A stretch of DNA of 14,711 bases from a virus (lineage: Duplodnaviria; Heunggongvirae; Uroviricota; Caudoviricetes), in IMG/VR virus record IMGVR_UViG_2778261349_000009, positions 1 through 14,711 of that record; one strand, 5' to 3'. The first letter of the stretch is position 1; each line of letters starts with the position of its first letter. The notes beneath the pieces are model-generated. The model did not search any database and had not been told where the DNA came from. It worked only from the letters and a program-made list of their open reading frames with translations. A program made the position numbers and the translations under genes. Shown piece after piece: positions 3,450 through 4,326 of the stretch.

Positions 3450-4022
3450 TCACTGGCCTTCTGGCATACCATGAGTATTCAGGTCGTTAATCATTTCATC
3501 CAGAAGGAGTTCAAGCCCTTCTCGCCCCATGTCTGAAACAATGAAACCTTTATCTGGGTATGTAATGAGCATTTTCTGATAAAGAAATAGTGCTCTACCC
3601 ATTCCTTCTGCCTCGCCGTATTTTTGAATTAAATTCCATTCAATATACTGCTGTAAGGCAAACCGAATGGGGCCGGGATATATCGTCATAACCCCATGCT
3701 TCCCGTTATATATTACGGCGCGATCTGTTGTTCCGTGTTCGTTTGGGATATCAATAGTGCCATTCTTGTTTTCTTCTTCGTTGATGAATGTCGTCACGTA
3801 CAACCAGCGCCACTGAGCTACCTTCATCTCAACAGGGAGTTTACCTAGTAATCCTGCATTGTCGGCTTGTGCGAGGCATTGAAGGATTTGCAAACCTTTC
3901 ACATTAGGATGATCGAATTCACCTGCATCCAGACGGCGGATTGCGTCGTGATAATCAATAGTCATACTGCCAGTTCGTATACCTGTGGCTGTTGCTTCAG
4001 CCTGGAATTCAGTGTATTGCAT
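3450..4022 (-). CDS. Hypothetical protein (190 aa), no recognisable family
   Basis: Clean 190-aa ORF. Its SD (GAGGAG) is formed by the last two codons of the upstream 60-aa gene (…GAG GAG TAA), indicating tight translational coupling. Confidence 0.6.
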   Translation of the reverse strand: MQYTEFQAEATATGIRTGSMTIDYHDAIRRLDAGEFDHPNVKGLQILQCLAQADNAGLLGKLPVEMKVAQWRWLYVTTFINEEENKNGTIDIPNEHGTTDRAVIYNGKHGVMTIYPGPIRFALQQYIEWNLIQKYGEAEGMGRALFLYQKMLITYPDKGFIVSDMGREGLELLLDEMINDLNTHGMPEGQ

Positions 4023-4027
4023 GATAT

Positions 4028-4210
4028 TTACTCCTCATCTTCATCAGCTGGTGCAATAACGTCATATCCTGCCTTTTCTGCAATAAACAGGAATGTTGAA
4101 AGACTTCCTACAAGTTCATCGTCATGAACATGACGAATTAATATTACTTTCCCGTTTTTGATGGTCAGCAATACTCTGGTTTGCTCGTGTTCTGCTGTTT
4201 TCTGATGCAT
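4028..4210 (-). CDS. Hypothetical small protein (60 aa) with acidic C-terminal tail
   Basis: ORF MHQKTAEHEQTRVLLTIKNGKVILIRHVHDDELVGSLSTFLFIAEKAGYDVIAPADEDEE. SD GGGAGA about 6 nt upstream of the ATG at 4210. Coupled to the 190-aa gene downstream. Confidence 0.55.
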   Translation of the reverse strand: MHQKTAEHEQTRVLLTIKNGKVILIRHVHDDELVGSLSTFLFIAEKAGYDVIAPADEDEE

Positions 4211-4212
4211 TA

Positions 4213-4326
4213 TTATCTCCCGTATGCTTTACGCAGAAACAAGCAGGCAATATGCATGTAATTTTTCCCGTGCTGTGCAATAAGGCAGGCTGTTTTGTGT
4301 GATGCCTTATGTTTTATAAAGGTCAT
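4213..4326 (-). CDS. Small basic ORF (37 aa), possible leader peptide or small protein
   Basis: Hand-translated: MTFIKHKASHKTACLIAQHGKNYMHIACLFLRKAYGR. Preceded by a perfect SD (AGGAGG, 6-nt spacer). Its TAA stop lies 2 nt before the ATG of the 60-aa gene. Confidence 0.25.
   Translation of the reverse strand: MTFIKHKASHKTACLIAQHGKNYMHIACLFLRKAYGR

Follow-up and report, generated by a model that had tools for sequence, protein, structure and literature searches.

The early-left (pL) operon of phage lambda carries non-essential accessory genes such as ral, kil, cIII, gam, and the ea genes, and orphan genes of early operons have been a repeated source of anti-defence and host-takeover functions. 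Prophages also carry three-component toxin–antitoxin modules, such as paaR2-paaA2-parE2 of Escherichia coli O157:H7. Here we consider three adjacent minus-strand genes, F37, F60, and F190, encoding proteins of 37, 60, and 190 amino acids (aa), in a stretch of 14,711 nucleotides of a tailed phage (Caudoviricetes; positions 1 to 14,711 of the IMG/VR record IMGVR_UViG_2778261349_000009; the window). An earlier note on this DNA had seen in F60 and F190 the typical shape of a toxin/immunity or trigger/effector pair. Our comparison of related loci does not bear this out: F60 and F190 assort independently within a wider array of orphan accessory genes. The reading that we favour, with somewhat more confidence than doubt, is that F37, F60, and F190 are coupled but independently assorting accessory genes of a leftward early operon, encoding binding proteins for host modulation or counter-defence.

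Results

Gene content of related loci

The comparison drew on 112 related loci, which were taken from genomes, from viral contigs and annotated phages, and from assemblies, and which we scored with family profiles built here; the retrieval used an intermediate alignment, the broad alignment of 51 sequences being too diverse. The order F37–F60–F190 was found in 88 of the 112 loci, all of them from E. coli lineages of Shiga toxin (Stx)-phage type with an F190 identity of at least 70%, and their F60–F190 junctions show either the 5-nucleotide (nt) spacer of the window or an ATGA overlap. Seven loci from E. coli, Citrobacter, Klebsiella, and Klebsiella phage KPP5665-2 hold a full array, F37 ... 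p119–F60–ParE-like (PF24732)–p130/140–F190, in which a ParE-like gene and p130/140 stand between F60 and F190; neither of these two genes occurs in the window or in any of the 88 loci of its lineage. Five loci have the array without F190; their F60 is of the commonest variant, for which 1238 index blocks are listed. F60 is missing from the array in eight loci (Yersinia, Pantoea, Phytobacter, CwR94, E. coli, and a phage deposited as Aeromonas phage AsXd-1), and one locus (L109) lacks the ParE-like gene only. In one further locus, an alphaproteobacterial metagenome-assembled genome (L021), F190 occurs alone among unrelated small early genes. The cases of F190 without F60 come to nine (4 + 3 + 1 arrays, plus L021). 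Judged by this gene content, the direct F60–F190 junction is a derived state, specific to one E. coli lineage.

If F60 and F190 formed a toxin/immunity or trigger/effector pair defending the lysogen against phages, one could point to their tight coupling and their adjacency in 88 of 88 E. coli-lineage loci, to their opposite sizes with the small partner acidic, and to the lack of a predicted terminator between cI and the module, which makes expression in the lysogen possible. The obligatory co-occurrence used as a criterion for type II toxin–antitoxin pairs was, however, not observed: F190 lacks F60 in the nine loci, which represent several genera, and F60 lacks F190 in five, and since each gene occurs without the other, an obligate toxin/antidote relationship is incompatible with the census. 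Other lineages place the ParE-like gene and/or p130/140 between the two, and the acidic tail of F60 is not conserved (see below). Neither a toxin superfamily nor a toxin-like fold was found in F60 or F190, no antitoxin was matched by sequence or fold, and of the defence-system models in PADLOC-DB v2, none matched F37, F60, or F190 at E ≤ 0.1. We regard the pair as highly improbable. As for an autoregulated promoter or operator, a conserved 55-nt leader does exist, though it lies upstream of F37 and holds no recognisable promoter or conserved palindrome. What was borne out is the description of a compact module of coupled, uncharacterised genes in a prophage accessory region.

Coding evidence and the F37 micro-protein

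The three open reading frames (ORFs) lie on the minus strand exactly where the earlier note had put them, and the Shine–Dalgarno (SD) sequences and gaps that it had read are correct. The AGGAGG of F37 stands 6 nt ahead of an ATG, which is GTG in the commonest variant of the gene; the F37 stop (4213–4215) is followed after 2 nt by the ATG of F60, and GGGAG (4217–4221) lies inside the last codons of F37. The final two codons of F60 are GAGGAG (4031–4036), followed by TAA and 5 nt to the ATG of F190, and the lineage of ~70% identity has the ATGA overlap at this junction. SDs embedded in the upstream 3′ ends and the overlap in that lineage suggest that the set would be translated in a coupled manner. 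In comparison with a relative of ~70% identity (L006), the identities at codon positions 1, 2, and 3 are 0.74, 0.92, and 0.58 for F37, 0.57, 0.77, and 0.39 for F60, and 0.80, 0.90, and 0.55 for F190. The order 2 > 1 > 3 in all three is that of coding sequence, and F37, F60, and F190 are genuine protein-coding genes.

PGAP skipped the 37-aa ORF in this genome, leaving an unannotated gap between the 66-aa and 60-aa genes of the RefSeq record. Its Nei–Gojobori dN/dS is 0.08–0.15, with synonymous sites near saturation, and the differences are distributed over the codon positions as 470/174/811. The protein is kept at 35–37 aa in E. coli, Citrobacter, Phytobacter, Pantoea, Klebsiella, and CwR94, and the most distant copies differ by an in-frame indel of two codons. 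F37 has no match in Pfam, PHROG, or NCBIfam, and several GenBank submitters call it 'hypothetical' (e.g., ECO111_2446). The purifying selection (dN/dS ~0.1), the frame and length kept across genera, and the GenBank calls, together with a properly spaced SD, argue that F37 is a real gene for a conserved basic micro-protein, and the earlier note was right to draw attention to it.

Some copies of F37 are broken. In a viral contig (L062, ~3349–4798) the gene is split by an insertion of ~1 kb, and another copy (L002, 4661–4765) has an internal stop, so F37 would be dispensable for prophage maintenance. In a Citrobacter locus (L017, ~3625–3643) a poly-G tract lies just upstream of F37, and changes in its length join the upstream 89-aa gene in frame with F37, giving products of 127–128 aa (P0357 and P0361). 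The 'members' of 89–128 aa in the F37 clusters were accordingly discarded as clustering artefacts, produced by the adjacent p119 gene and by this frameshift fusion. Prophage Sp15 of the Sakai strain, a reference strain with public ribosome profiling, was also set aside as a source of such data: though at the same integration site, this classical lambda-type phage lacks the module.

F190 and its relation to p119

F190 matches phrog_1515 over residues 1–189 of 190 (E 6.3e-92) and F60 matches phrog_340 over residues 2–59 of 60 (E 6.3e-22), but both families, though matched at full length, are labelled 'unknown function'. Neither F190 alone nor its family profile had a match in Pfam, NCBIfam, PADLOC, or PDB sequences. 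The statement that the two larger proteins show no assignable motif thus agrees with the searches made, in which F60 and F190 matched no characterised family. The remote-homology and structure check that had been proposed was run on both proteins; it gave a confident AlphaFold model for F190 (pLDDT, the predicted local distance difference test, 88.8; pTM, the predicted template modelling score, 0.84) and no characterised family. A word-indexed search with F190 returned Escherichia relatives only, and an exhaustive profile search gave 125 representatives (50% level), nearly all of them stand-alone proteins of 190–220 aa.

The p119 family matches the F190 profile in its C-terminal half. In a profile–profile alignment, residues 6–112 of p119 align to residues 68–184 of F190 (hhalign 94.3%, E 1e-7), and F190 is thus a p119 paralogue consisting of a p119-like core and an addition of ~65 residues at the N terminus. 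The p119 gene, which comes first in the cassette of several arrays (as in L010 and L011) and is GP34 in Klebsiella phage KPP5665-2, belongs to the same operon and array as F190 and is homologous to its core. It differs in lacking the N-terminal ~65 residues and the conserved C-terminal P..P..H, and it is likewise uncharacterised. In the alphaproteobacterial L021, the genes that follow F190 (5583–5933 and 6141–6530) encode proteins of 116 and 129 aa that resemble the p119/F190 core pattern and may be further paralogues. Both F60 and F190 are predicted to be soluble and acidic with no transmembrane segment, and their modelled folds seem to have no characterised relative and no catalytic or defence signature.

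Some F190 homologues are labelled '2-polyprenylphenol hydrolase/hydroxylase-related flavodoxin oxidoreductase' (Klebsiella phage records H81–H85; L103, 3501–4079). An identity as flavodoxin/ferredoxin reductase was rejected, with 0 of 51 family members matching FAD- or NAD-binding Pfam domains and no such fold match, and the label is probably a propagated mis-annotation.

Most members of the F190 family end in P..P..H, and the terminal His is kept in at least 90% of the family. Through a 1-nt deletion the protein of the window ends ...PEGQ instead of the family's ...PEAPVTH. This loss of the conserved ...APVTH would fit a decaying, functionless remnant in a domesticated prophage, as would broken copies elsewhere (P0031 and P0033, frameshifted or split, and the split and interrupted F37 copies described above) and the state of the neighbouring DUF4222 gene, a pseudogene. 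Yet all three genes are under strong purifying selection across lineages, their SDs and coupling are intact, and the truncated F190 allele is present, otherwise intact and 95–100% identical, in many strains and Stx phages, making up a whole sub-lineage. Being so common, the allele appears to be tolerated, and we consider decay very unlikely.

F60 and its acidic tail

The F60 family comprises 523 clusters from Escherichia, Klebsiella, Raoultella, Citrobacter, and Shigella, including gene P27p07 of phage phiP27. PF27490 is precomputed on a few F60 relatives. F60 is modelled as a beta-hairpin and one helix (pLDDT 81.7), without a fold match, and no antitoxin domain of the ribbon–helix–helix (RHH), PhD, or ParD type was found in it by Pfam/NCBIfam. 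In literature searches, neither the accessions nor the locus names of phiP27 nor the PHROG identifier turned up in any paper, and other searches gave nothing relevant.

The only lead on F60 is a moderate match of its residues 12–53 to two PHROG families with the label anti-repressor, phrog_4792 (E 2.6e-5) and phrog_2379 (E 6e-4), in each case to the C-terminal part. This raises the question of whether the module is regulatory, with F60 as a free-standing anti-repressor C-terminal domain that, together with F37, modulates the lysis–lysogeny switch or helix–turn–helix (HTH) regulators. The module does lie immediately downstream of cI, the double-HTH regulator, and a 66-aa paralogue of the latter, and in other lineages proteins of the Bro-N/Rha type come after F190. 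On the other hand, PHROG labels are annotations and not tested functions, no F60-like domain was found in the larger proteins of the fetched loci, the top 120 relatives of F60 are all small stand-alone proteins, and F60 is missing from many otherwise identical arrays. A regulatory role of this kind is in our view decidedly unlikely.

The acidic C-tail had been taken as a feature of the small partner. In orthologues, F60 ends in ...PPAKEQTL or ...APAQEE..., and in the sub-lineage of the window the (GATGAA)n copy number differs among strains, from a single unit to six or more. The tails range from ADEDEE to ADEDEDEDEDEDEDEE, with protein lengths of 60, 62, 64, 66, 70 aa and so on (junctions of L051, L056, L057, and L061). 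The tail is thus a slippage-prone, lineage-specific repeat and not a conserved feature of the family. The F60 coding region also contains an inverted repeat (TCGTCATGAACATGACGA, 4119–4136), perfect over 7 bp and with a loop of 4 nt, which was flagged as terminator-like on the plus strand; the lineage of 50% identity differs in this part of F60.

The leader of F37

Upstream of F37, conservation is confined to the proximal 55 nt of the intergenic region, which are 76–87% identical between lineages versus ~51% at neighbouring third-codon positions (78% in the L006 comparison, p = 4e-5); the distal spacer shows no conservation among relatives. We considered several explanations for the conserved segment. 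A structured RNA was not supported, as the leader forms only two weak 4-bp hairpins (z −1.9) with no compensatory changes. A regulator site was rejected for the core, whose 13-mer occurs nowhere else in the window. A sigma-70 promoter was not found in the leader at the scan threshold, and inspection by hand gave weak, unconserved matches only.

The two repeats that the earlier note had proposed as a possible regulatory site are at chance level and not conserved, which also speaks against the pair. The GATTAAG direct repeat has 3 occurrences in the window versus 1.59 expected and 50 of 200 shuffles reaching 3, and neither copy is kept in relatives. The inverted repeat GATAAT/ATTATC does exist (4354–4359 and 4383–4388), but its arms are 6 nt each and vary in relatives without compensation.

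In other prophages, F37 and its leader precede unrelated cassettes (p119, F60-like, ParE-like, and p130), and the homology breaks exactly at the F37 stop; such prophages were found through BLAST matches covering only ~4210–4381/4420 of the window. F37 and the 55-nt leader thus form a conserved head to a cargo slot of variable content, which lies downstream of the immunity region. Other genera lack this leader: there, a different gene lies upstream of F37 and abuts or overlaps it.

Source prophage and transcription

The region shares 100% identity with the E. coli 00-3076 chromosome and 95–96% with Stx2a/Stx2d-converting phages. The RefSeq record describes a lambdoid prophage inserted beside mlrA, and the window is an E. 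coli Stx-type lambdoid prophage at that site. The minus-strand gene order is cI–HTH–66 aa–F37–F60–F190–SPFH–xis–int, with a 62-aa membrane protein, an SPFH lipoprotein, DUF5406, a DUF4222 fragment, xis, and int downstream of F190 (Table 1). The module thus occupies the leftward early region, with immunity genes on one side and integration genes on the other, and is co-directional with a leftward promoter beside the repressor gene, as are the early-left accessory genes of lambdoid phages.

Table 1. Positions in the window of the module and of the elements discussed with it
Feature	Position	Strand	Remarks
F190, 190-aa acidic protein, pI 4.9	3450–4022	minus	phrog_1515 member; unique N-terminal ~65 residues and p119-like core (~68–184)
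F190 3′ end, 1-nt deletion versus family	3450–3461	minus	GAAGGCCAGTGA here versus GAAGCGCCAGTGACACATTAA in L006
F60, 60-aa acidic protein, pI 5.0	4028–4210	minus	phrog_340 member; beta-hairpin (12–28) and helix (37–46) predicted
(GATGAA)n/GAG repeat	4031–4045	minus	codes for F60's DE tail, with the GAGGAG SD of F190 at its end
F37, 37-aa basic micro-protein, pI 10.2, MTFIKHKASHKTACLIAQHGKNYMHIACLFLRKAYGR	4213–4326	minus	ORF and SD; no RefSeq annotation here
Conserved proximal F37 leader, 55 nt	4327–4381	minus	holds SD AGGAGG (4333–4338) and invariant core ATCGCCGGGGATT (4357–4369)
Distal spacer, 26 nt, 66-aa gene to leader	4382–4407	minus	42–50% identity to relatives; one inverted-repeat arm
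66-aa gene, phrog_4587	4408–4608	minus	directly upstream; paralogue of double-HTH N-terminal domain
Double-HTH regulator ('CII-like', phrog_4836)	4614–5306	minus	
pL-like sigma-70 promoter, TTGACA-17-TAATAT	5361–5389	minus	10/12 match; between cI-like gene and leftward array
20-nt operator-like site beside −35	5400–5419		85% identical direct repeat at 6178–6197, cI–cro intergenic region
cI-like S24 repressor	5454–6143	minus	RefSeq gene order

The two 20-nt sites flank the repressor gene, as expected for operators of the OL/OR type, and we take them as probable candidates for repressor operators. No minus-strand terminator was predicted from the pL-like promoter to position 3000, and no intrinsic terminator between the cI stop and that promoter.

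Some neighbouring genes are of interest in themselves. The 66-aa protein resembles the N-terminal domain of the double-HTH regulator (BLASTP 48% over 44 aa, E 5e-9); as a free-standing copy of the regulator's non-DNA-binding domain, it could modulate that regulator. An unannotated hydrophobic 35-aa ORF, MKSNRDLSRVKLLLILATVLTITEIIILFIALSVS, lies on the minus strand at 3289–3396, between F190 and the genes for the 62-aa membrane protein and the SPFH lipoprotein. It shows few changes across ~31 related loci and may encode a small membrane protein of the SPFH module. The truncated DUF4222 pseudogene annotated by RefSeq is at ~1705–1809 of the window (L001, 9506–9610), between DUF5406 and xis; a second DUF4222 gene, intact, is found in the rightward early region.

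Discussion

The gene order, the putative promoter, and the coupling suggest how the module would work. F37, F60, and F190 would be transcribed from the repressor-controlled pL-like promoter upon induction or infection, and F60 and F190 would be non-enzymatic proteins, small, soluble, and acidic, that bind to targets in the host or the phage. Their role would then be an accessory one in host modulation or counter-defence, as is typical of this operon position, and not that of a self-contained toxin/immunity pair.

Several observations weigh against this reading of the module as independently assorting early-operon genes. As no terminator separates cI from the array, low read-through of the cI transcript could give expression in lysogens. 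The leader could hold an independent promoter or operator that was not recognised here. The adjacency and coupling of F60 and F190 throughout the 88 E. coli-lineage loci make a functional partnership specific to that lineage possible. The F190 of the window, lacking the conserved C-terminal His, may be partly impaired. Finally, the binding role is inferred solely from missing enzymatic signatures.

A more speculative picture would have F190/p119 as a new fold family of temperate-phage early proteins that neutralises toxins of the ParE/RelE type or another abortive-infection effector of the host, in a counter-defence function, F60 as its co-factor, and F37 with its leader as a 'cassette header' that sets cargo expression and provides a homologous linker for cassette exchange; we regard this combination as a long shot.

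The module consists of orphan accessory genes of a temperate-phage early operon, and its most interesting elements are F37 and the F190/p119 fold. With the present analysis, a toxin/immunity candidate that looked plausible but lacks support can be struck off the list. A micro-protein is documented that is widespread in Enterobacterales prophages, being found on more than 1000 contigs, and was skipped by the annotation pipeline here. The analysis also defines a recurrent orphan early-left array in lambda/HK97-like phages, including medically relevant Stx-converting phages, in which F190 and p119 share a confidently predicted fold without a characterised relative. A counter-defence or host-takeover role of the module is possible, and since anti-defence functions are often found among early-operon orphans, the array is a reasonable, if unprioritised, target for functional screens.

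Several known systems invite comparison. With toxin–antitoxin modules of the ParE/ParD type, the array shares a setting in prophage early regions near HTH regulators, where F60 relatives usually lie just upstream of, and overlap, the ParE-like PF24732 gene. This usual place seems to be the only link of the module to toxin–antitoxin systems. The ParE-like gene is optional in the array and missing from the window, and F60 differs from known antitoxins in having no RHH, PhD, or ParD domain. An alternative that we consider unlikely is that the array as a whole makes up a ParE-like toxin system of several components, with p119 and/or F60 as antidotes or adaptors and p130/140 and F190 as accessory factors, and that the window keeps an orphan F60 and F190 after loss of the toxin gene. 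The anti-repressors phrog_4792 and phrog_2379 are alike in that their C-terminal ~45 residues align to the core of F60, and differ in that F60 has no N-terminal domain of the Bro-N, ANT, or KilA type, the E-values being moderate.

The early-left accessory genes of lambda show no sequence or fold similarity to F37, F60, or F190, and this prophage is without N, cIII, kil, gam, bet, and exo, all of which Sp15 has at the same integration site. The likeness lies in the arrangement: as in lambda, the genes of the module occupy the interval from immunity to xis/int, run on the strand of a repressor-flanked leftward promoter, and are small, dense, often overlapping, mosaic, and individually dispensable, and it is in this interval, too, that lambda/HK97-like temperate phages of Enterobacterales carry the array.

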